NCBI GenBank assembly: GCA_009837815.1
Contig: VXSV01000047.1
Location: 1 to 48,867, forward strand
Reading direction: 5' to 3'
DNA length: 48,867 nucleotides
Source of the DNA: Acidimicrobiia bacterium
Lineage (GTDB): Bacteria > Actinomycetota > Acidimicrobiia > Spongiisociales > ZC4RG35
Shown here: positions 10,980 through 23,530 of the stretch, one piece after another
Layout of the letters: each line of letters starts with the position of its first letter
How positions within the stretch are numbered: the first letter of the stretch is position 1
Notes under the pieces: generated by a model
Told to the model about the DNA's origin: nothing
What the model saw: only the letters and a program-made list of their open reading frames with translations
The model's database searches: none
Program-made: the position numbers and the translations under genes

Positions 10980-11953
10980 TGCCCACCATCGCCCTGGATG
11001 CCGGCGGGGGTGACTTCGCTCCCCGGGAGACGGTGGCCGGAGCGGTAGCGGCGGCCGCCCAGGGGATTGACGTGCTCCTGGTGGGGAATCGCCCCGTTCT
11101 GCAGACAGAGCTGGATCACCAGGAGGCGGAGTTGCCGATCGTGCACGCCCCGGCGGTGGTTGGAATGGGAGACTTTCCTATCAGGGCCATCCGGGAGGTG
11201 CCGGACTCTTCGGTGGTGGTGTGCGGAAACCTGGTCTCCTCGGGAGAGGCCGACGGGTTCGTCTCGGCGGGCTCCACAGGAGCCTCCCTGGCGGTGGCGG
11301 CCGTGGGTATCGGCCGGCTGCCGGGGGTGTCGAGGCCGGCGATCGCCAGCCTCCTGACCATTCCGTGGAATCCGACGGTCCTCTGCGACGCGGGCGCCAA
11401 CCTGGTGGTGCGGCCCAGCCAACTGGAGGAGTTCGCAGTGATGGGATCGGTGGTGGCCGAGACCACCGCCGGCGTCGACAACCCACGGGTGGGACTGCTC
11501 AACAACGGCTCGGAAGACTCCAAGGGCAGAGAGATGGAGAGGGAGGGGCTTGCTCTCCTTCGCAGAGCCCCCGTGAACTTCGTGGGGAATGTCGAGGGGA
11601 CTGATTTCGCCACCGGGGCGGTGGACGTGATCGTTACCGACGGTTTCACCGGGAATATCTTCTTGAAGACGGTGGAGGCCTCGGTGGTGATGGCAGCCAA
11701 GGCATTCTTCTCGCTGCTGGCGGAGAACGAGCCCGAGACCGAGGAGAAGATACGGCCACAGTTCTCCGCACAGGGCCGCAAGCTGATGGACGACCGTCAC
11801 GCCGGCGCTCACCTGGTGGGCGCAAAGGGCATCGCGGTGATCGCCCACGGGCACGCCCGCAGTTCGGCCATCGCCAAGGCGCTGCAGATGGCGCACGAGG
11901 GTTCCAGGTACCGGCTTCCGGATCGGATCGGGGAGAGATTCCTCTGCCGTTGA
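10979..11953 (+). CDS. plsX: Phosphate acyltransferase PlsX
   Basis: IALDAGGGDFAP, SAGSTGA, RPAI, GNVEG, TDGFTGN and IAHG motifs. Confidence 0.95.
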   Translation: MPTIALDAGGGDFAPRETVAGAVAAAAQGIDVLLVGNRPVLQTELDHQEAELPIVHAPAVVGMGDFPIRAIREVPDSSVVVCGNLVSSGEADGFVSAGSTGASLAVAAVGIGRLPGVSRPAIASLLTIPWNPTVLCDAGANLVVRPSQLEEFAVMGSVVAETTAGVDNPRVGLLNNGSEDSKGREMEREGLALLRRAPVNFVGNVEGTDFATGAVDVIVTDGFTGNIFLKTVEASVVMAAKAFFSLLAENEPETEEKIRPQFSAQGRKLMDDRHAGAHLVGAKGIAVIAHGHARSSAIAKALQMAHEGSRYRLPDRIGERFLCR

Positions 11954-12726
11954 ACCACCTGCAGAAGCGTTTGGGTTATCGGTTCTCGTCGCCTGAGTTG
12001 CTCCTGAACGCGCTCACACACAGCTCCTATGCCAACGAGATGGGCATCCCCGACAACGAACGGCTTGAGTTCCTGGGCGACACCGTCCTGCAAATGGTGG
12101 TAACCCGCCACCTGTTCGGGGAGTATCCGCACCTGCGGGAGGGCCAGATGACCAGGGTGCGGGCGGCGGTGGTGCGGAAGGAGTCGCTGGCGCAGGTGGC
12201 GGAGGTGCTCGACCTGGGAGAAGGCCTCCGTCTGGGCAAAGGCCAGGAGCAATCAGGCCGTCACAACGTGAGCATCCTGGCCGACGCCATGGAAGCTGTC
12301 ATAGGAGCCGTCTACACCGACGGCGGATGGAAACCGGCCGAACGCCTGATAATGACCAACTGGCGGGAGATGATCGACACCCAGGCTGCCGCACCCGACG
12401 CGCTTGACGCCAAGACCCAGCTCCAAGAGTTGCTGGCCACAGAAGGCAAGACCCCCCAATACCGTGTCACCGGGGAGGGCCCCGGTCACGCTCGCCGTTT
12501 CGAGGCGGAGGTATGGGTGGATGAGAAGTGCTCCGGGACCGGTGAAGGACCCACCCACCGCCTGGCCGAGCAGCAGGCGGCGCGTAGCGCCATCGAGACG
12601 CTCTTTTCCGGTACGATCCCGGCCCGCCCCCGGGCGAAGCCCCCCGTATCCGCAGCCCCTCGGGCAGTCGGACCACGGGAGTCCCCCCAATGGTGGTGGA
12701 TGAAACGCCGGCCGAAGAAACCTTGA
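11950..12726 (+). CDS. rnc: Ribonuclease III
   Basis: NERLEFLGD signature, ADAMEAVIGAVY, and a dsRBD (DAKTQLQE). Confidence 0.96.
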   Translation: MNHLQKRLGYRFSSPELLLNALTHSSYANEMGIPDNERLEFLGDTVLQMVVTRHLFGEYPHLREGQMTRVRAAVVRKESLAQVAEVLDLGEGLRLGKGQEQSGRHNVSILADAMEAVIGAVYTDGGWKPAERLIMTNWREMIDTQAAAPDALDAKTQLQELLATEGKTPQYRVTGEGPGHARRFEAEVWVDEKCSGTGEGPTHRLAEQQAARSAIETLFSGTIPARPRAKPPVSAAPRAVGPRESPQWWWMKRRPKKP

Positions 12727-12738
12727 TCTGAGCGGAGA

Positions 12739-13575
12739 ATGCCGGAACTGCCCGAAGTGGAGACGGTGCGCCGGGCCATCCGGTCCGAACTCGAGGGCCG
12801 CAGGGTGGCTTCCGCCCGGATATGTCATCCCCGCACCGCCCGCCGCCACGCCCGCCACACCGACGTGGAGGACAGGTTGGTGGGTCGGCGCGTCAATCGG
12901 GTGGGTCGGCTCGGAAAGTTCCTGCTGATCGGGGTGGACGGCGATCTCACCTGGGTGATGCATTTGGGGATGTCGGGGCGTATCAGCCTGTGTGAACCCG
13001 GCGATCCGATGGAGATCCACACCCGCTTTTGGGCCGAGATGGAACCGGGCCCCTCGTTGCGCATGATCGATCCGAGGACTTTCGGGTTCGTGGCGGTGTT
13101 CACCCCCGAGGAGTTGGATGGTTCCACCCTGGCCCGGCTGGGCGCCGACGCCTGGGAGGACCTCCCCTCGGCCGGTTGGCTGTTCGAGGCGATGAGGTCG
13201 CGGACCACTCCCATCAAGAGCCTGCTCCTGGACCAGCGCTTCCTGGCGGGCCTGGGGAACATCTACTCCGATGAGGTGCTCCATCGGGCGGGGATCCACC
13301 CCACCCGCCGGTCGGGAGGGCTGTCGTTGGAGGAGGTGGGCCGGATCCGCTCGGAGGTGCGTCCGGTCCTGGCGGAGGGGATCAGCCGGGGAGGCGTCAG
13401 TCTGGATGATCTCGCCTACCTGTTGCCGGATGGCCGGGCCGGGGGCTTCCTGGAGTATCTGGCAGTGTACGGCCGGGAGGGCCTGGCATGCCGGTCCTGT
13501 CAGTCCCCGATCCGGAGGATGGTGATCAACGCCAGGTCTTCTTTCTTCTGTCCGGAGTGCCAGGCAGGGCCCTGA
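12739..13575 (+). CDS. mutM: Formamidopyrimidine-DNA glycosylase (Fpg)
   Basis: MPELPEVE, HLGMSG, GLGNIYSDE and a C-terminal CxxC..CxxCQ zinc finger. Confidence 0.97.
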   Translation: MPELPEVETVRRAIRSELEGRRVASARICHPRTARRHARHTDVEDRLVGRRVNRVGRLGKFLLIGVDGDLTWVMHLGMSGRISLCEPGDPMEIHTRFWAEMEPGPSLRMIDPRTFGFVAVFTPEELDGSTLARLGADAWEDLPSAGWLFEAMRSRTTPIKSLLLDQRFLAGLGNIYSDEVLHRAGIHPTRRSGGLSLEEVGRIRSEVRPVLAEGISRGGVSLDDLAYLLPDGRAGGFLEYLAVYGREGLACRSCQSPIRRMVINARSSFFCPECQAGP

Positions 13576-13638
13576 GAGGGGCCGTCGAGCGAACAAACCA
13601 CCGAAAAAGGGCGGGAATCCATTAATTTGGGTTTGCGG

Positions 13639-16600
13639 ATGTTTCTGAAGTCCATCGCTGTCGCCGGGTTCAAGTCCTTTGCCAAGCGGACCACTCTCGA
13701 GTTTGGTCCGGGGATCACGGTGATCGTCGGTCCGAACGGCTCGGGAAAGTCCAACATCGTGGATGCGGTGGCCTGGGCAACGGGAAGCCAGGCCACCCGG
13801 ACGCTACGCGCCGACCGCTCCGACGAATTACTGTTCTGCGGGACGGCCACGCTGCCGGCGTCGTCCCGGGCGGAGGTGACGCTCGTGTTCGACAACACCT
13901 CGGGTGTCCTGCCCATCGATCGCCCGGAGGTGTCGGTCACCCGCCGCTACCACCGCTCGGGTGAGTCCGAGTTCGAGATCAACCGGGTCTCGTGTCGGCT
14001 GCTGGACATCACCGAATTGCTGGCCGAGGCGGGCATTTGGAAAACCCGGTATGCATTGGTGGGACAGGGACAGATCGAGCGGGTCCTCAATGCCTCTCCG
14101 TCCGAACACCGGAAGGTCTTGGAGGAGGCGGCCGGAGTGGGCAAGCACCTCTGGCGCCGGGACAAGGCGGTCCGACGCCTGGAGTCCACCGGAGCGGACC
14201 TGGATCGCATCGCAGACCTGATCGCGGAAAAGCAGCGGAGGATGCGTCCTCTGCGCCGCCAGGCCGAGGCGTTGGGGCGGTATCAGCGCCTGTCGGGAGA
14301 GATCAGGGCGTTGCGCACCTTCCTGGAGGGAAAGAGGCTCCGGGAACTCGACGAAGAACTGGCCAACGCCGTGGCAAGTCGCAAGAGATGGCATGAAAGG
14401 CGTTCGGAGGCGGCAGCAGACCGTGAGCGGGGCGTGCAGGCGCTTTCGGAGGCCGAATCATCACTTGAGGATCTCCGCTCCGATCCGGCGGACCGGGCGC
14501 TGCAGGATTGGGAGATGGCCACCGAGCGGATGCGTCGCCTGTCGGAGGTGGCCGCCCTGCAGAACGAGGCCCTCCGTCGACGCCGCCAGATGGAGGCGCT
14601 GGGACGATCGCTGGTCGAGGAGCGGGTCTCTCTGGAGCAGGGCATGGAGAAAGTGGATGGCGAGATAGCGTCCTGCGAGCAGGCTGTGGAGATCGCCCGC
14701 TCCGCCCAGGCCCGGCTGGCCGGGGAGGAACGGAGGCTGGCAGTCTTGAAGGGCGCGGGCGCGGAGGCGGAACTGGGGGGACTGGAGAATGAGCTGGCCG
14801 GGTTGGAGGCCGCCTGGGAGAGAGATCTGGGGGAACTGGAGGGGGTCGAGGCCCGGCTTTCCGAGCTGGCGGCCACCGCCGAGCGTCTGGAGTCTGGGAT
14901 GGAGGAGGCGGAGCAGGCACTCGCCGGGGCGGAGGCCCTGCATCTATCGGAGGAGGAAGAAATGAAACGGGCCGCCCGGCGGGCCAGGGAGACGAGGCGG
15001 CAGTTGAGGGCGGCGGAGGAGCGGGCGGCGGAGGCCCGCGCGGCAATGGCAGAGGCGACGGGGAGGCTGGAAGCGGCCCGGGCGGCCCTGAAGGCCCGGG
15101 ATCCGGCCCGGAGAAGCCAGGTGGAGGCCCTCAGCGGGTGGACGGGATGGGTATCCCAACTTCTCTCCGTACCCGAGGAGTTGGCCGCGGCGGTGGAGGC
15201 GGCGTTGGAGAGATGGGCAGAGGCCGGCGTGTTCGAGGGACCAGTGGGGCTCGGAAACGCGGTGGACAGGTTGGGAGAAGCAGGGGGCCCCGGGGGGCCC
15301 GTCTCGATGGTCAGCCTCCGCTTTCCAGGACGGCTGGAGAGTTCCGCCCGGTCGGCAGCCTTGTCGGGTAGCAGGTTCAAGCCGCTCCTGGACCTGCTGG
15401 AGGAGGACCCCCAGGCCGCTTTGGCGATGCGGCTTTTGGGCGATGTGGTTGTGGTGGAAGACTGGCGAACCGGGTGGGAAGTGGTAGGGAGCCATCCACA
15501 CCTTCGAGCGGTTACCCGCCGGGGAGACCTGATAACCGCCCGGGGGATCCGTCTCTGCGGCGGGGTCCGCCTGCCCGATCTGGCGGCGGCGGTGGCGAAT
15601 GCGGAGGAGGCCGGCCGGTCCTGTGAGCACCTCCGGGAGGAGCTGCGGCGAGTGGGCGCCGAGGCGCGGTCGGGAGAGGAAGCCCAGGAAGAGTCCACCG
15701 CCCGGTGGAACGAACGCCGCCGCTCGCTGCTGGAGTCCCAGCAGAGGCGGGATCGGGTGGAGTCGCGTTGGACCGAACTCCAGGGGCAGTCCCGCCGCCT
15801 GGAGGAGCGGAGGGACTCACTCAGGGAGGAACAAGCGGCTCGGCGGGGCCGCATGGCCGAGTTGAAGGAGCGGATCACCCGGCTGCGCGGCCGACGGGTG
15901 GACGCCGCCGGCGAGGCGCGGCGACTGGCCGAGCGACTGGAGCGGGCTTCTGAAGACCGGGTGGCGGCCGAGGAGGAGCACCGGTCCCGAATCACCGAAC
16001 TCAGCCGTCTAAGGGAGGAGAGACGGCTGGGACAGGCCCGGCACGAAAAGGTCGTGATGGAGTTGACGAGGGTTTCCTTCCTGCCCGAGGAGGCCCCCGA
16101 CCACTCCGAGGAGGTGGCTGAGTTGGCCGCTGCGGCGCTCGGGGTGATGTCCGCCCGGCGGGAGGCGCTGGTCTCAATCGACCGGGCGTCAAAGGAGAGG
16201 TTCCGGGAGGTGGCGGCCGAATCGGGGCGGATCCGGGAAGCCATCGGCCAGGCCGATGAGACCGAGCGCCGCGCCACGGGCGAGTTGGAAGGGCTGATTG
16301 CCGAGGTCTCCCGGTTGGAGTCCCGCCGCCAGGCGGTTACCGAGAGCCTCCGAATGGTGGGCGCCGATCCCACAGAGGCGGTCACCGCGCCGGTCCCCGA
16401 GACGGAAGACCCCGAGGGGACGCTGCGGTCCCTGGTGGCCGAACTGGAACGGGCGGGACCCATGAACCACTACGCCGCCCTGGATTTGTCGGAACTGGAG
16501 TCGGAGGTCTCGGAGTTGTCAGCGCAGCGCGACGACATCGTCGAATCCGGAGAACGCCTGGGCAGGGTAATCGCAGAGTTGGAGAGGGAGGCGACCGATC

Positions 16601-17094
16601 GTTACCTGGCCACTTTCCGGGAGACGGCTACCTCTTTCGAACGATCATTCGGTCAGGTCTTCCCGGGTGGCCGGGGCCGGCTTCGCCTGGTGGATTCGGC
16701 CGATCCGCTCGGCTCGGGAGTGGAGATCCGAGCCCAGCCTTCGGGGAAACGGGTGTCGCGGCTCAGCCTGCTGTCGGGAGGAGAGCGAGCTTTGGGGGCT
16801 CTGGCCTTTCTGTTTGCGATGATGAAGACCCGCCCGTCTCCCTTCTACCTGCTTGATGAAGTGGACGCCACCTTGGACTCGGCCAACCTGCACCGAGTTC
16901 TCGGGATGGTCCGAGAACTCAGCTCGGAGGCACAAATCCTGGTAATAACCCACCAGCCCCAGACCGCCGAGGCCGCCGACCTGCTCTACGGGGTGACCAT
17001 GCCCCCCGGAGGCGCCACCCGGGTGGTCTCCGTGGGCATGGACCAGGCCGGTACCGGTCTGCCAGGCCTGCAACCTCCCGCCAAGTCCGCCTGA
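13639..17094 (+). CDS. smc: Chromosome segregation protein SMC
   Basis: GFKSF, Walker A GPNGSGKSN, long coiled coils, LSGGE signature, Walker B LLDEVD. Confidence 0.95.
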   Translation: MFLKSIAVAGFKSFAKRTTLEFGPGITVIVGPNGSGKSNIVDAVAWATGSQATRTLRADRSDELLFCGTATLPASSRAEVTLVFDNTSGVLPIDRPEVSVTRRYHRSGESEFEINRVSCRLLDITELLAEAGIWKTRYALVGQGQIERVLNASPSEHRKVLEEAAGVGKHLWRRDKAVRRLESTGADLDRIADLIAEKQRRMRPLRRQAEALGRYQRLSGEIRALRTFLEGKRLRELDEELANAVASRKRWHERRSEAAADRERGVQALSEAESSLEDLRSDPADRALQDWEMATERMRRLSEVAALQNEALRRRRQMEALGRSLVEERVSLEQGMEKVDGEIASCEQAVEIARSAQARLAGEERRLAVLKGAGAEAELGGLENELAGLEAAWERDLGELEGVEARLSELAATAERLESGMEEAEQALAGAEALHLSEEEEMKRAARRARETRRQLRAAEERAAEARAAMAEATGRLEAARAALKARDPARRSQVEALSGWTGWVSQLLSVPEELAAAVEAALERWAEAGVFEGPVGLGNAVDRLGEAGGPGGPVSMVSLRFPGRLESSARSAALSGSRFKPLLDLLEEDPQAALAMRLLGDVVVVEDWRTGWEVVGSHPHLRAVTRRGDLITARGIRLCGGVRLPDLAAAVANAEEAGRSCEHLREELRRVGAEARSGEEAQEESTARWNERRRSLLESQQRRDRVESRWTELQGQSRRLEERRDSLREEQAARRGRMAELKERITRLRGRRVDAAGEARRLAERLERASEDRVAAEEEHRSRITELSRLREERRLGQARHEKVVMELTRVSFLPEEAPDHSEEVAELAAAALGVMSARREALVSIDRASKERFREVAAESGRIREAIGQADETERRATGELEGLIAEVSRLESRRQAVTESLRMVGADPTEAVTAPVPETEDPEGTLRSLVAELERAGPMNHYAALDLSELESEVSELSAQRDDIVESGERLGRVIAELEREATDRYLATFRETATSFERSFGQVFPGGRGRLRLVDSADPLGSGVEIRAQPSGKRVSRLSLLSGGERALGALAFLFAMMKTRPSPFYLLDEVDATLDSANLHRVLGMVRELSSEAQILVITHQPQTAEAADLLYGVTMPPGGATRVVSVGMDQAGTGLPGLQPPAKSA

Positions 17095-17161: not shown

Positions 17162-17773
17162 TTGAGCACCAGTGACACATTTCCTGAGCAGGCCCCGGGG
17201 CTGCTGTCGATCGGTCACTCGAATCATGCTTTTGATGATCTGGTGAAGCTTCTGAAAATGCACCGGGTGGAGGCGGTAGCAGATGTGCGCAGCTCACCCC
17301 ACTCAGGGTTCAACCCCCAATTCAATAGGCAGGATCTGCGACATGGGTTGAAAGCGGCGGGAATTCGATACGTTTTCCTGGGAGAGGAACTAGGTGGACG
17401 TCCCGAGGGGGCCGAGTTCTACGACTCTGACAGCCGCGTTCAATATGGGCGGGTGGCTGAGACGGTCTTGTTTCAGTCCGGCCTCCGACGGCTTGTTGAA
17501 GCGGGCAACCGCTACCGCACAGCCATTCTATGCAGCGAGGAGGACCCGGTGGGGTGTCATCGGTACCTACTCATAACGCGGGCGCTCTCCAACCAAGGAG
17601 TCGAAGTGATCCACATCCGGGGCGACGGCGCCCTGCAACGCCCGCAGGAGTTGCCGTCATTCGATCCTGAGTACCGGGAGGCTACGCTTTTTGGAGAGGA
17701 GGTGAGGAGCTCATGGAGATCTACACGATCGGCTTCACCAAGAAGTCGGCCGAAGACTTCTTCGCGTCGCTGA
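17162..17773 (+). CDS. DUF488 family protein (copy 1)
   Basis: SIGHSNH, DVRSSPHS, ELGGRP and LCSEEDPVGCHR motifs. Confidence 0.9.
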   Translation: MSTSDTFPEQAPGLLSIGHSNHAFDDLVKLLKMHRVEAVADVRSSPHSGFNPQFNRQDLRHGLKAAGIRYVFLGEELGGRPEGAEFYDSDSRVQYGRVAETVLFQSGLRRLVEAGNRYRTAILCSEEDPVGCHRYLLITRALSNQGVEVIHIRGDGALQRPQELPSFDPEYREATLFGEEVRSSWRSTRSASPRSRPKTSSRR

Positions 17774-18153
17774 GGCGCAACCGCATCAAACGGCTCGTGG
17801 ATGTCAGGGCCAACAACACCTCACAGTTGGCCGGCTTCACGAAACAGAATGACCTTGTCTTTTTCCTGGGGGACCTGCTGGGAGCCGACTACTTCCATGA
17901 GCCCCTGTTTGCCCCCACCAAGGAACTCCTCAAGGCGTATCGCAATAAAAATGGTCTCACTTGGGATGAATACGAGTCGGACTTCTTGGATCTCCTGTCG
18001 GAACGCCAGGTGGAAGTGGAGATTTCCAGGGATCTCTTCCTCCCTCGGACCGTGTTGTTGTGCAGTGAGGCAACCTCCGATCTCTGCCACCGGCGACTGG
18101 TCATCGATTATCTGGATGGGTCTTGGGGCAACGTACAAGCCGTCCATTTGTAG
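17713..18153 (+). CDS. DUF488 family protein (copy 2, different subtype)
   Basis: IYTIGFTKKSAEDFF, DVRANNTSQLAGF and LLCSE..CHRRLV motifs; GAGGAG before the ATG. Confidence 0.9.
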   Translation: MEIYTIGFTKKSAEDFFASLRRNRIKRLVDVRANNTSQLAGFTKQNDLVFFLGDLLGADYFHEPLFAPTKELLKAYRNKNGLTWDEYESDFLDLLSERQVEVEISRDLFLPRTVLLCSEATSDLCHRRLVIDYLDGSWGNVQAVHL

Positions 18154-18162
18154 CGACTCTCG

Positions 18163-18855
18163 ATGCGCATCCTGATCAACCATCTGACTCGCATGAGGCC
18201 CGGCCGAATTTGTGTGGCGGGGGTCACCACGAATGGTGCTCACATCCGTCCCGTGCTCGACGGCGAACAACTCGGGCGAGATCTTTTGAGCAGTGAGGGT
18301 GGTCCCTTCTCTCTGGGACAGGTAGTGGACCTTGGTAAGACCCGTAGCCGTCAGAGTGTTCCCGAGGTTGAGGACGTTGTGTTTCGCCCGGAGGAGGTAA
18401 AGCCAGAGAAGATGCTGAGTTCAGCCGAGTTCGGAGACGTGATGAAGCAGTTCGCGAAATCTTCGCTGGTGGAGATCTTCGGCAAGGACCTTATCCCTCA
18501 TCGACGCACCGCGGCCGTTTCCGAGGGGGAGGGAAGCGTGTCGCTGGGTGTACTCCGACCAGAGGGTGCCAGGTTCTCTTCAGGAACCCCACAGGATGGT
18601 GGAGTCAGACTAACAGTTGAAGATACTGATCTGGGAGACCTGACCTTGCCGGTGACTGACCTCCGCTTGTGGAAGCCTGATCACAGGACCCCCGCTCGGC
18701 GCGCAGTCGAAGGAATCCGATCGGCCCTGGAGGGATGCCTAGTTGCAGTGGGACTCTCCAGGCCTTTCCGGCCGCCGGGGCACTCTGTCCCTAGGCACTG
18801 GTTGCAGGTAAACAACCTCTTCCCGGTTGGTGATCCTCTGTGGGCCCGGGCGTGA
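18163..18855 (+). CDS. Putative dual OB-fold (DuOB-type) nucleic-acid-binding protein
   Basis: N-terminal GRICVAG..G.HIRPV and C-terminal LPVTD, VGLSRPF, WLQVNNL. The pattern is recalled for dual-OB proteins found beside DUF488 genes; not verified by search. Confidence 0.7.
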   Translation: MRILINHLTRMRPGRICVAGVTTNGAHIRPVLDGEQLGRDLLSSEGGPFSLGQVVDLGKTRSRQSVPEVEDVVFRPEEVKPEKMLSSAEFGDVMKQFAKSSLVEIFGKDLIPHRRTAAVSEGEGSVSLGVLRPEGARFSSGTPQDGGVRLTVEDTDLGDLTLPVTDLRLWKPDHRTPARRAVEGIRSALEGCLVAVGLSRPFRPPGHSVPRHWLQVNNLFPVGDPLWARA

Positions 18856-19310
18856 GCACCTGTAGATCTGGTCGTAAGGAAAGCCAACGAGATGGCTAAA
18901 ACAACCTTCGATTAGCGCGCCGCGAAAGTGTCGGAGGTGGCAAATTTCTGAAATCCGCGCCATAGCAGGCGTGGCTTCTGATCGGTAGGATGATGAGTCT
19001 GGGGGTCGGGAATAATAAGGGTTTGCCAACCCTGCCACTCGTTCCCGGACTCCAACTCGGGGCCGCCCGAAGGGTGGACCTACCAAATGACTTTACCGAC
19101 AAGTGTCGGCCAGGTCAAGTGAATCAGAGGGATTCGTTTGACACGTTAGTAGCGATGTGGGTGGGCTTTGAGGGCAGAAGTACCGCCGTCGTTATCGCGA
19201 TCTGGTCGCGTTGCTCTCCAGATGATCGAGTTGCCTCCCCCGGTTTGGGTCGGAGTCAACGACATTAGAGGTCTGGGGAGGAGCCAGGTCGGGAGAGCCG
19301 GCGGCCGCCG

Positions 19311-20312
19311 GTGGATGTCGGGACGGGTCGGGCATTAACATGGCCGAGGGTGGCATGGCTGACGCGCTGGTGGAGAAGGCGTCGCTCTTCCCTCCTCGAA
19401 CCGAAGGCTCCTGCGGATCCGACCTATTCCGCTCTGGCGAAGACCCGGCGCGCCCTGACGGCGGCCTGGAGATCCGCAGGCGGGGACGGACGGCTTCGCC
19501 CCGCCTTCTGGTCCGGGTTGGAGGATGCGCTGGTGGCGTCCGATCTGGGAGTGAAGATCTCGGCGGAGCTGGTATCTGCGGTCCGGAACGGCCAACCCGG
19601 AGACCAGACGGTGGCCCGGGCGCTTCTTGCCGAGGAGATGGTCAGGTTGCTGGCAGATTCAGACCGGACCCTGGCATGGTCCGGCAACGGGTCTCCCCGG
19701 GTGGTGATGGTGGTGGGGGTGAACGGGGCCGGGAAGACCACCACCTCCGCAAAGCTCGCCCACTGGCTGGCGTCGCAGGGCAGGGACTGCCTGCTGGGCG
19801 CCGCAGACACCCATCGCCCGGCCGCGCAGCGCCAGTTGGCGACCTGGGCGGAGAGGATGGGGGTGGACATCGTGGGGGGCGAGGACGGCGCCGATCCGGC
19901 CGCGGTCGCCCGGGACGCGTGGACTGCGGCCAAGAGCCGGGGCCGTCAGGTGGTGATCATCGACACAGCCGGCCGGTTGCACGCCAAGACCCACCTGATG
20001 AGCCAACTGGAGAAGATCAAGCGGGTGCTAACCGAGGTTGCCGGCAAGGTCGACGAGGTGCTCCTGGTGCTTGACGCTTCCACCGGCCAGAACGGGGTGG
20101 CCCAGGCCCGGGAATTCTGTCGCCGGGTGGGGGTGACCGGAGTGGTGCTCACCAAGTTGGACGGGACCGCCCGGGGAGGGGTGGCGGTGGCCGTGGAGCG
20201 CCGACTGGGGATGCCGGTGAAGCTGGTCGGGACCGGCGAGGGACTGTCGGATCTGGCGGTGTTCGACGCCGAGACATTCGTGCGGGCGCTGCTGGAGGAC
20301 GGACCCCGATGA
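19311..20312 (+). CDS. ftsY: Signal recognition particle receptor FtsY
   Basis: GVNGAGKTT, DPAAVA, DTAGRLH, DASTGQN and TKLDGTARGG motifs. True start may be GTG 19350. Confidence 0.95.
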   Translation: MDVGTGRALTWPRVAWLTRWWRRRRSSLLEPKAPADPTYSALAKTRRALTAAWRSAGGDGRLRPAFWSGLEDALVASDLGVKISAELVSAVRNGQPGDQTVARALLAEEMVRLLADSDRTLAWSGNGSPRVVMVVGVNGAGKTTTSAKLAHWLASQGRDCLLGAADTHRPAAQRQLATWAERMGVDIVGGEDGADPAAVARDAWTAAKSRGRQVVIIDTAGRLHAKTHLMSQLEKIKRVLTEVAGKVDEVLLVLDASTGQNGVAQAREFCRRVGVTGVVLTKLDGTARGGVAVAVERRLGMPVKLVGTGEGLSDLAVFDAETFVRALLEDGPR

Positions 20313-20737
20313 CCGGCCACGACTCCCTGGTGGACAGAGCGCGCCGGGCCGCCCGGAACTCCTACTCGCCCTACTCGGGATTCCGGGTGGGAGCGGCGCT
20401 TGTGACCGGCGACGGCTCGATCTTCTGCGGCGCCAACGTGGAGAACGCCGCCTACCCGGTCTCCAACTGCGCGGAGGCGACCGCGGTCAACACCGCCGCC
20501 GCGGCGGGCGCCAGGCGGATTGGCACTGTGGCGGTGGCCTGCATCGACGCCGACTCCATCGCCGACGCCTACCCGTGTGGGCGGTGCCGTCAGGTGATGA
20601 ACGAGTTCGGAGTGGAGACGGTGCTGGTTGCAACCGGCGCCGGTTCCTACCGGGTTCACAGCCTTTCCGAACTGCTGCCATACGGGTTTTCCGGCGACTT
20701 TCTCCGGGGTGGGGGAGAGGCTCCCGCAGGGAGTTGA
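20309..20737 (+). CDS. cdd: Cytidine deaminase
   Basis: YSPYSGFRVGAA, NVENAAY, CAE and PCGRCRQ zinc motifs. Confidence 0.95.
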   Translation: MTGHDSLVDRARRAARNSYSPYSGFRVGAALVTGDGSIFCGANVENAAYPVSNCAEATAVNTAAAAGARRIGTVAVACIDADSIADAYPCGRCRQVMNEFGVETVLVATGAGSYRVHSLSELLPYGFSGDFLRGGGEAPAGS

Positions 20738-20815: not shown

Positions 20816-22096
20816 ATGATTGATATGCGTCCCCTCTCCCAGGTGGATCCCGCCACCGCCGGTTTGATCCGCCGCGACGTGGAAAGGCAAAACAGCCACA
20901 TTCACCTGATCGCCTCGGAGAACTTCGCGTCGCCGGCGGTGATGGCCGCTTCGGGCTCCATTTTCACCAACAAGTACGCCGAGGGCTACCCGGGCCGCCG
21001 CTACTACGAGGGCTGTGCGGTGGTGGACGAGATGGAGACCCTGGCCATTGAGCGGGCCAAGTCGCTTTTCGGGGCGGCCAGCGCCAACGTTCAGCCCCAT
21101 TCGGGAGCCCAGGCCAACATGAGCGTTTACTTTTCGCTGCTGACCCCGGGTGACACGGTCCTGGGCATGCGGCTCGACCAGGGGGGACACCTCACGCACG
21201 GGTCGCCGGTCAACTTCTCGGGCCTGTACTACGACTTCGCGGCGTACGGGGTTGATCCGGGCACCGAACGTGTGGACATGGACCAGGTAAGAGCGCTGGC
21301 CTTGGAGCACCGTCCCAAGATCCTGCTGGCCGGTTACTCGGCCTACTCCAGGCGTCTCGATTACCAGGGATTCCGGGAGATCGCCGACGAGGCGGGTGCC
21401 GTCTTCATGGTGGACGCCGCTCACTTCATCGGGCTGGTGGCCGGCAAGGCCTACCCCAACCCGGTTCCTTTCGCAGACATCGTCACCGGCACCACCCACA
21501 AGGCCCTGCGAGGGCCCCGCGGTGGCTTGGCGCTGGCCCGGGAGGAATACGCCGCCGCCATCAACAAGGCGGTGTTCCCCAACGCTCAAGGAGGGCCGCT
21601 CATCAACCAGGTGGCGGCCAAGGCGGTCTGCTTCCTGGAGGCGTCGACAGCCGATTTTCGCGCCTACGCGGCTCAGGTGGTCGCCAATGCCGCGGCCATG
21701 GCGGCGGCGGTGCAGGAGGCCGGGGCCCGAGTGGTGTCGGGAGGCACCGACAACCATCTGTTCCTGATCGATCTGCGCTCGGTCTCCGAAGACCTCACCG
21801 GAAGGGCTGCGGCCCGGCTGCTGGACGAGCTGGGGATCACCCTCAATTTCAACACCATCCCCTTCGATCCTCGGCCTCCCTACCGGGCGTCGGGAATCCG
21901 AATCGGGACGCCCGCCATGACCTCCCAGGGCATGACCGAACCCGAAGCCAGGCAGGTGGGATCCCTGATCGTGGAGGCGCTCCGAGGGGGTGGCGACGAA
22001 TCCGTCCGGGCCGACGTCGCCGGCAGGGTGGCGGAGTTGGCCGCCTCCTTCACCCCCTACCCGGCCGGTTTTCGAGGATACGGCGGGACGGGATAA
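20816..22096 (+). CDS. glyA: Serine hydroxymethyltransferase
   Basis: LIASEN, NKYAEGYPGRRYY, GGHLTHG and TTHKALRGPRGG motifs. Confidence 0.97.
   Translation: MIDMRPLSQVDPATAGLIRRDVERQNSHIHLIASENFASPAVMAASGSIFTNKYAEGYPGRRYYEGCAVVDEMETLAIERAKSLFGAASANVQPHSGAQANMSVYFSLLTPGDTVLGMRLDQGGHLTHGSPVNFSGLYYDFAAYGVDPGTERVDMDQVRALALEHRPKILLAGYSAYSRRLDYQGFREIADEAGAVFMVDAAHFIGLVAGKAYPNPVPFADIVTGTTHKALRGPRGGLALAREEYAAAINKAVFPNAQGGPLINQVAAKAVCFLEASTADFRAYAAQVVANAAAMAAAVQEAGARVVSGGTDNHLFLIDLRSVSEDLTGRAAARLLDELGITLNFNTIPFDPRPPYRASGIRIGTPAMTSQGMTEPEARQVGSLIVEALRGGGDESVRADVAGRVAELAASFTPYPAGFRGYGGTG

Positions 22097-22503: not shown

Positions 22504-23530
<1,027 letters not shown>

Follow-up and report, generated by a model that had tools for sequence, protein, structure and literature searches.

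We analysed a stretch of DNA of 48,867 nucleotides (nt) from an Acidimicrobiia bacterium (GenBank assembly GCA_009837815.1, contig VXSV01000047.1, forward strand; hereafter the window), in which three packed, co-directional genes lie between smc and ftsY. They encode two paralogs of the DUF488 family and a protein with two oligonucleotide/oligosaccharide-binding (OB) folds of the DuOB family. The trio is an intact, rearranged variant, with a divergent DuOB, of the computationally described DUF488-N3/DuOB system, which is listed in PADLOC as the candidate PDC-M45. The elements of the cassette are the following.

17162–17773, plus strand: gene 1, DUF488 paralog of 203 amino acids with a TTG start, PDC-M45B-like
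17713–18153, plus strand: gene 2, DUF488-N3a paralog of 146 amino acids with an ATG start, PDC-M45C-like
18163–18855, plus strand: gene 3, divergent DuOB (dual OB-fold) protein of 230 amino acids with an ATG start
17713–17773, plus strand: out-of-frame dual-coding overlap of genes 1 and 2, 61 nt, holding the conserved tail of gene 1 and codons 1–20 of gene 2
17693–17709, plus strand: purine-rich, putative Shine-Dalgarno-like run GGAGAGGAGGTGAGGAG, read from the sequence, inside gene 1 and just 5' of the gene 2 ATG

The gap between smc and gene 1 is 67 nt, that between genes 2 and 3 is 9 nt and that between gene 3 and ftsY is 455 nt. All three open reading frames (ORFs) of the trio are intact in the window.

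The family assignments of a first-pass annotation, which was made from the sequence without database searches (DUF488, DUF488 and dual OB), were borne out by Pfam. Genes 1 and 2 matched DUF488 (PF04343, gathering cut-off 22.2 bits) at 2e-21 (77.3 bits) and 4.4e-17 (63.3 bits), respectively, and gene 2 also matched DUF488-N3a (PF22751, the 'active' subclade) with 29.9 bits for a cut-off of 27, its catalytic motif being kept. Gene 3 matched DuOB (PF22557) at 3e-8 (34.4 bits, cut-off 27), with residues 2–216 aligned on positions 2–207 of the 210 of the profile. A six-frame search of the window's genome with PF22557 gave no match at E≤0.01 though hmmscan of gene 3 exceeded the cut-off, and we treated this miss as a sensitivity limit of that search. 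At the same threshold of E≤0.01, gene 1 had no match to DUF488-N3a and neither gene 1 nor gene 2 matched DUF488-N3i (PF22752, the 'inactive' subclade). The assignment of gene 1 to the 'inactive' N3i type was rejected, given the lack of a PF22752 match and the retention of C124, C132, H133 and R134. The window DuOB and DUF488-N3a proteins thus exceed the Pfam cut-offs of the DUF488-N3/DuOB system while gene 1 differs from its N3i type. None of the three proteins has a model in NCBIfam. We take the Pfam families PF22751, PF22752 and PF22557 to derive from the work of Burroughs and Aravind of 2023, in which novel DNA-end processing was reportedly predicted within nucleic-acid-modifying conflict systems. 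This prediction agrees with the inference of the first-pass annotation and with the reading favoured below.

The DUF488 pair also matched models of PADLOC. Gene 1 matched PDC-M45B (PDLC04657) at 8.3e-58 (193 bits, profile positions 6–151 of 204) and gene 2 matched PDC-M45C (PDLC04658) at 1.2e-56 (188.5 bits, positions 1–144 of 145). No PADLOC match was obtained for gene 3 at E≤1, nor did the PDC-M45A model (PDLC04656) match anywhere in the window's genome at that threshold; it likewise missed the DuOB sites in another five genomes that carry this trio subtype. A true PDC-M45A match was found in one of 301 Actinomycetota genomes (G270; 8.7e-20), where the protein is a Pfam DuOB (2.6e-68) followed by a DUF488 protein of 216 amino acids and a DUF488-N3a protein of 143 amino acids. 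Because the B and C models match genes 1 and 2 and the PDC-M45A protein of G270 is a Pfam DuOB, PDC-M45 and the window trio are made of the same component families (a DuOB and two DUF488 types). They differ in gene order, which is A-B-C in both canonical copies inspected (G270 and Allochromatium plasmid pAt1) and B-C-A in the window, and in the overlap of the B and C genes, which is 4 nt in the two canonical copies instead of 61 nt with a conserved tail. The window DuOB is also only weakly related to that of canonical PDC-M45 at the profile level (hhalign probability 11%, E 0.0027). The claim that DUF488 and dual-OB proteins occur together in conflict-type settings agrees with the PDC-M45 entry of PADLOC, and the cassette is less novel than the first-pass annotation had thought, the system being already described in silico.

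Outside the window, the trio is conserved as a self-contained three-gene operon. In a search with the window DuOB, 717 of 1405 candidate proteins had E≤0.001, and some of the listed homologues bear the names 'dual OB domain-containing protein' or 'putative nucleic acid modification protein with dual OB domain'. Relatives of this DuOB are encoded in 208 stretches of species-representative genomes, and the three window proteins were compared by tblastn with the best 80 of these. Since these loci were picked by DuOB similarity, the co-occurrence rate is valid only for the window-type DuOB subtype. The order gene 1, gene 2, DuOB on one strand was found in 74 of the 80 best loci. In two others the DUF488 pair is on the opposite strand (L027, L038), three loci at contig ends showed gene 2 only (L058, L078, L091) and one had no DUF488 within 8 kb (L048). 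The hosts are Actinomycetota (Acidimicrobiia, Rubrobacteraceae and Solirubrobacteraceae), Chloroflexota, Planctomycetota, Acidobacteriota, Myxococcota, Thermodesulfobacteriota, Dormiibacterota and a bin labelled Gammaproteobacteria. The DuOB of this last bin (L042) and that of a bin labelled Planctomycetota (L029) are near-identical (branches of about 0.09 each) within the same trio layout, reflecting either a recent transfer or an error of binning or labelling. Two 'Candidatus Spongiisociaceae' genomes carry a tandem pair of DuOB genes after the DUF488 pair (L023, 8001–9475; L030, 7296–8729). Two long DuOB homologues (P0058, 394 amino acids; P0084, 314 amino acids) were not DUF488 fusions, fused forms not having been searched for systematically.

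The overlap of genes 1 and 2 was compared in 73 loci and the window (74 rows). Its length was 61 nt in 59 rows, 85–94 nt in 10 and at most 16 nt in five; the overlap of the window has the prevailing length of 61 nt. A conserved W-(K/R)-S-(I/T)-R-S-V motif lies in the part of the gene 1 tail that the overlap covers. Codon 5 of gene 2 (Thr) was ACG in 58 of 66 sequences and ACC in none of the 66 within the overlap, compared to 40% ACG and 37% ACC elsewhere in gene 2, while codon 7 (Gly) was GGT in 56 of 66 compared to 11% elsewhere. For codon 4 (Tyr), TAT was used 36 times and TAC 12 times in the overlap, TAT representing 27% elsewhere in gene 2. The synonymous codon choice of gene 2 is skewed so that the tail motif of gene 1 stays. 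The rows share ancestry (about 28 are from Rubrobacteraceae), so these codon counts overstate independence; the pattern holds across phyla. The gene 1 tail seems to mark the B-C-A subtype, because the canonical copies overlap by 4 nt and the PDC-M45B profile aligns to gene 1 only through position 151 of 204.

Both DUF488 paralogs look active, because their cysteine, histidine and arginine residues are kept in 74–75 of 75 aligned homologues each. The translations contain the motifs by which two distinct subtypes were proposed earlier, gene 1 bearing the motifs SIGHS, DVR and C-S-E...C-H-R and gene 2 the motifs TIGFT, DVR and C-S-E...C-H-R, and the suggestion that both may be active fits the conservation of C124, C132, H133 and R134 of gene 1 in 74–75 of 75 homologues and of C117, C125 and H126 (75 of 75) and R127 (74 of 75) of gene 2. 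In the AlphaFold2 model of gene 1 (predicted local distance difference test, pLDDT, 83.4), C124 ends the strand 119–124 and C132-H133-R134 open the helix 133–143. The best structural matches of this model were Cys-based atypical phosphatases, namely PFA-DSP1 (E 7.1e-4), DUF442, Siw14 and TpbA, with E from 7.1e-4 to about 3e-2 and probabilities of 0.92–1.0. The Cys/Arg loop of the model would have the topology of a phosphatase P-loop, in that a cysteine closes a strand and an arginine opens the next helix. A sequence search of solved structures with gene 2 gave no match.

The third protein was modelled as a tandem OB fold, in agreement with its first assignment (pLDDT 93.5; predicted template-modelling score, pTM, 0.90). 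The top matches of a Foldseek search of the Protein Data Bank with this model were tandem-OB DNA binders, that is the HIN-200 domains of p202, AIM2 and IFI16, Teb1 AB, CST, TEBP-alpha, POT1 and RPA, with E from 2.7e-4, probabilities mostly of 0.9–1.0, template-modelling (TM) scores of 0.25–0.43 and 224–240 alignment columns. VIA, an independent all-against-all aligner, placed residues 1–84 on the OB folds of SSB, RPA, PriB and TEBP with middling Z scores of 5.6–7.4, the second half being barely covered. A sequence search of solved structures with the DuOB profile gave no match. Among 24 diverse homologues, 26 columns of DuOB are invariant, including H7, T9, C17, R29, E70, D71, D166, H212 and N217, and H27 is nearly so. 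The abundance of polar residues (His, Cys, Glu, Asp) among these invariant columns sets DuOB apart from simple tandem-OB DNA binding; their conservation exceeds the needs of a passive binder of single-stranded DNA (ssDNA) and hints at metal binding or catalysis beyond DNA binding. Within the genus, DuOB proteins are 53–63% identical compared to 66–72% for gene 2, that is, DuOB diverges faster. Prediction of a complex of genes 1 and 2 with DuOB as partner gave a score of 0.01 for a mark of 0.32, which weighs neither for nor against binding.

The substrate of such a module can be read from these folds in more than one way. OB folds bind RNA too, and gene 1 comes closest, among solved folds, to phosphatases of small molecules and inositol pyrophosphates (PFA-DSP1, Siw14). 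The module might accordingly act on RNA ends or on nucleotides derived from NAD or ADP-ribose instead of DNA, removing for example 2'- or 3'-phosphates, cyclic phosphates or ADP-ribose-1''-phosphate in RNA repair or signalling. A variant on Citrobacter plasmid pLNU-11 (L119, 5379–7046), located among mobile genes, also agrees with this, in that it pairs DuOB and DUF488-N3a with a gene for the related, phosphatase-like domain DUF4326 that replaces the second DUF488. In the study of Iyer et al. (2022, PMC9503650), DUF4326 is proposed to process the ribose-linked phosphates of ADP-ribose. However, DuOB has its best structural matches among DNA binders, the recurrent neighbours of the family are DNA enzymes (RecQ, UvrA/UvrB and Mre11-Rad50-NurA), and the neighbour scan described below found no RNA ligase, kinase or tRNA-related gene recurring beside the trio. 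We consider an RNA or ADP-ribose substrate improbable.

The cassette lies among core genes, as follows.

11950–12726: rnc, upstream of mutM
12739–13575: mutM, between rnc and smc
13627–17094: smc, 5' flank of the trio
18856–19310: non-coding spacer between DuOB and ftsY, 57.6% guanine plus cytosine (GC), its 3' part being the ftsY upstream region
19311–20312: ftsY, 3' flank of the trio
20309–20737: cytidine deaminase gene, after ftsY
20816–22096: glyA, after the cytidine deaminase gene

Positions 18994–19310 of the spacer align at 70% identity with the sequence that precedes ftsY in G013, the nearest relative, with no other match to them within the genus. No Rfam family was found anywhere in the window, nor was a convincing promoter or terminator seen near the trio.

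The GC content of the trio is 58.4%, whereas the window has 65.8%, smc 68.4% and ftsY 69.6%, and the GC content at third codon positions (GC3) is 63%, 75% and 63% for genes 1, 2 and 3 compared to 81–85% for smc, ftsY, glyA and mutM. Counted on lines of 60 nt, the GC fraction ranged from 0.47 to 0.72 in the trio (median 0.58, n=28) and from 0.52 to 0.82 in smc and ftsY (median 0.68, n=73), so that the earlier observation of a GC content below that of core genes held on full counts. The trio is the GC-poorest 1.7 kb of the window; only 1.5% of the 1694-nt windows taken at a step of 50 were equally GC-poor, and the minimum falls inside the trio. A second GC-poor stretch at 22600–23400 (about 56–58% GC) was dismissed as an island, as it encodes the ATP synthase subunits a and c and has an ordinary membrane-protein composition. 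Across 66 loci, the GC content of the trio minus that of its flanks had a median of -1.2 points, the trio having the lower value in 46 loci, by over 3 points in 23 of them. Low GC is a trait of the Acidimicrobiia copies of the trio.

Comparison with 16 other genomes of the genus showed what became of the smc-ftsY site. The full trio lies between smc and ftsY in three of them (G003, G015, G007), and G008 has the trio with its DuOB interrupted by a stop. Gene 1 and a truncated gene 2 are left in G002 and G011. The nearest relatives by FtsY identity (G013, G010 and G014; 86–89%) hold a gene 1 remnant of 26–31 codons after smc, together with a CBS-domain gene on the opposite strand at the site (Pfam scan in G013 only), and in G006 the last 85 DuOB codons alone remain after smc. 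In G001, G012, G005 and G004, smc is followed directly by ftsY with a gap of about 140–430 nt, and it is this adjacency that the trio interrupts in the window, as first noted. G016, where the contig ends, and G009, whose smc lies away from ftsY, stand outside the site comparison.

A maximum-likelihood tree obtained by a quick search with 80 DuOB sequences grouped the 12 Acidimicrobiia rows in one clade, with a Shimodaira–Hasegawa-like approximate likelihood ratio test (SH-aLRT) value of 100, and the four smc-ftsY copies in a subclade (SH-aLRT 92); most other clades likewise track taxonomy. Because the same site is occupied across species, the Acidimicrobiia copies form one clade and remnants are found in relatives, the cassette is a long-standing resident of the smc-ftsY site that is being lost repeatedly. 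The first-pass annotation had called the cassette horizontally acquired. Its accessory character and its odd composition stood, whereas a recent horizontal insertion was ruled out by the shared site, the monophyletic clade and the remnants in relatives.

The same decay could mean that the cassette of the window genome is a functionless relic heading for loss. The relatives show each stage of decay (G008, G002, G011, G013, G010, G014 and G006), and the low GC3 suggests weak codon adaptation. However, all three ORFs of the window are intact, the catalytic and invariant residues are retained and genes 1 and 2 overlap in a dual-coding manner by precisely the 61 nt that are conserved, which makes a relic very improbable.

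The smc-ftsY gap is a variable site, because other insertions are also found there. In G007 (L012, 1264–8049), a run of genes for a HerA-like protein (599 amino acids, weak match to HerA of PADLOC), Mre11/SbcD, Rad50/SbcC and NurA lies between smc and the trio, co-directional with the latter, the end of NurA being 21 nt before gene 1. G015 has a DUF222-HNH endonuclease gene between DuOB and ftsY (L011, 10580–11872). In G013, a duplicated 3' fragment of smc (L102, 1316–2047; residues 958–1155, 90% identical) lies between the real smc and ftsY, accompanied by the gene 1 remnant of 31 codons (L102, 3300–3392) and a gene with four CBS domains on the opposite strand. This arrangement of G013 looks like a scar of replacement by recombination.

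The reading that we favour, with a probability of roughly 0.4, is that the trio processes DNA ends or lesions in an OB-guided, Cys-dependent manner, and for the B-C-A subtype we lean slightly towards genome maintenance; its DNA substrate, the formation of a complex, the chemistry and the biological role are what we infer from the families, folds and conservation described above. The tandem-OB protein would bind ssDNA or a DNA end and would recruit both DUF488 paralogs. These would be Cys-dependent enzymes of rhodanese-phosphatase fold with intact active-site loops, and at a DNA terminus or a lesion the pair would take off a phosphate-linked group or transfer it. The B-C-A subtype would then serve as an accessory for the cleaning of damaged or blocked DNA ends with helicases and nucleases, away from dedicated phage defence.

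The genes nearest to the trio and its relatives, two on each side from crude longest-ORF calls, were examined through 135 of 169 neighbour representatives, with counts taken without background comparison. These neighbours fell into 140 Pfam families, none of which was present in more than three or four representatives and which were mostly housekeeping; no constant fourth gene was found among the neighbours of window-type loci. RecQ adjoins the trio in 10 loci, eight times upstream and divergent and twice downstream and co-directional (Pfam check on one representative, the others by blastp clustering), and one Ktedonobacterales locus has a RecQ-like gene after DuOB. The HerA-Mre11-Rad50-NurA run directly upstream of the trio in G007 is another repair-type neighbour. 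Homologues of gene 2 (48–53% identity) were found on 150 plasmid records, of which six regions were inspected. In three of these six (L114, Klebsiella pKp55; L115, a Comamonas plasmid; L117, an Acinetobacter pittii plasmid), all on large plasmids, a solo DUF488-N3a lies beside UvrA-paralog/UvrB and formaldehyde-response genes (frmR, fghA and a class III alcohol dehydrogenase), and one inspected region has rarA and an frmR-like gene nearby. These contexts may link the DUF488-N3a family to the repair of aldehyde damage.

Several observations weigh against the end-processing reading. The structural likeness of gene 1 to atypical phosphatases is modest (TM just 0.29–0.45), and its loop is C-x7-C-H-R (a C-x9-R with a second cysteine) instead of the classical C-x5-R. 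The fold matches of DuOB to tandem-OB binders are likewise modest, with TM scores and Z scores in the range given above and no sequence similarity. Literature searches found no activity or experimental work for DUF488 or DuOB, as the first-pass annotation had supposed. The RecQ adjacencies count as few independent events, because all 10 loci belong to one 11-member planctomycete clade. A NurA homologue was found in only three of the 17 genomes of the genus, and that of the window genome is on another contig (C125), away from the trio. Repair-type neighbours are moreover ambiguous, because paralogs of RecQ, UvrA, HerA/NurA and SbcCD also serve defence systems.

The remaining points on this side favour, at the same time, an anti-phage role, in which the OB protein would sense phage ssDNA or replication intermediates and the DUF488 pair would process or modify nucleic-acid ends, with the result that phage replication is blocked or abortive infection is triggered. 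Genes 1 and 2 match PDC-M45B and PDC-M45C, the canonical form being a phage-defence candidate of PADLOC. According to the preprint of Payne et al. (bioRxiv 10.1101/2024.01.29.577857), such candidates were chosen because their homologues are embedded in BREX, DISARM or type I restriction-modification systems. The canonical DuOB-DUF488-DUF488 copy of Allochromatium plasmid pAt1 lies inside a type III CRISPR-Cas locus and that of G270 adjoins a helix-turn-helix-peptidase M78 gene. The Citrobacter plasmid variant with DUF4326, set among mobile genes, counts on this side too. A few window-type loci adjoin DNA methylases or a NaeI or Eco57I-like gene, and these restriction-modification-type neighbours were counted on the side of defence; a few ABC-ATPase matches were seen too. 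The trio is patchily distributed, being present in 22 of 81 sampled Rubrobacteraceae genomes (18 of 77 without four unpublished genomes), and in the genus it is intact in three of 16 genomes, broken in one and a remnant in six, a repeated loss like that of defence genes. The low GC and GC3 of the window and related Acidimicrobiia copies, the tandem duplication of DuOB in two loci (L023, L030) and the faster divergence of DuOB than of gene 2 are also in keeping with defence.

However, all 145 of these candidates are described in the preprint as untested, and its main text does not name PDC-M45. The PDC-M45A model misses the window DuOB. Window-type loci are surrounded mostly by housekeeping genes and no defence partner recurs beside them, and the flanks of the window copy are core genes (rnc, mutM, smc, ftsY, the cytidine deaminase gene and glyA). 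The DuOB tree tracks taxonomy with no rampant transfer, window-type DuOB gave no match in the plasmid and phage collections searched and gene 2 gave none in the phage collection. Defence is a possible explanation that ranks close behind DNA-end processing, and the evidence from context is split between repair and defence and is not decisive.

Going further than the end-processing reading that we favour, the B-C-A subtype could be an unrecognised, vertically inherited DNA-repair module and not an immune system. Taken as a whole, this combination is rather unlikely. In it, the tandem-OB protein would sense ssDNA and bring in two Cys-enzymes as a heteromeric pair, which would clear blocked or adducted ends, such as the 3'-phosphates left by Fpg-type lyases or aldehyde or protein adducts. 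The module would be a partner of RecQ, Mre11-Rad50-NurA or UvrAB-type machines, and the 61-nt overlap would encode a tail for assembly or for translation of the paralogs in a fixed ratio.

As a discovery the trio is incremental, because its kind was already described computationally. What the window adds is the B-C-A gene order recurring in 74 of the best 80 loci, the failure of the PDC-M45A model of PADLOC to detect the DuOB of this subtype, and an unusual dual-coding overlap of two enzyme genes that is kept across phyla. DUF488 is a large domain family spread across prokaryotes, for which no reported activity was found in the literature, and the clues from context tie its enzymes to RecQ, UvrAB and Mre11-Rad50 as much as to defence. 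The trio offers a testable choice between repair and immunity and a compact target of three proteins for biochemistry. If the vertically inherited repair module were real, a first biochemical function would be assigned to the large DUF488 family.

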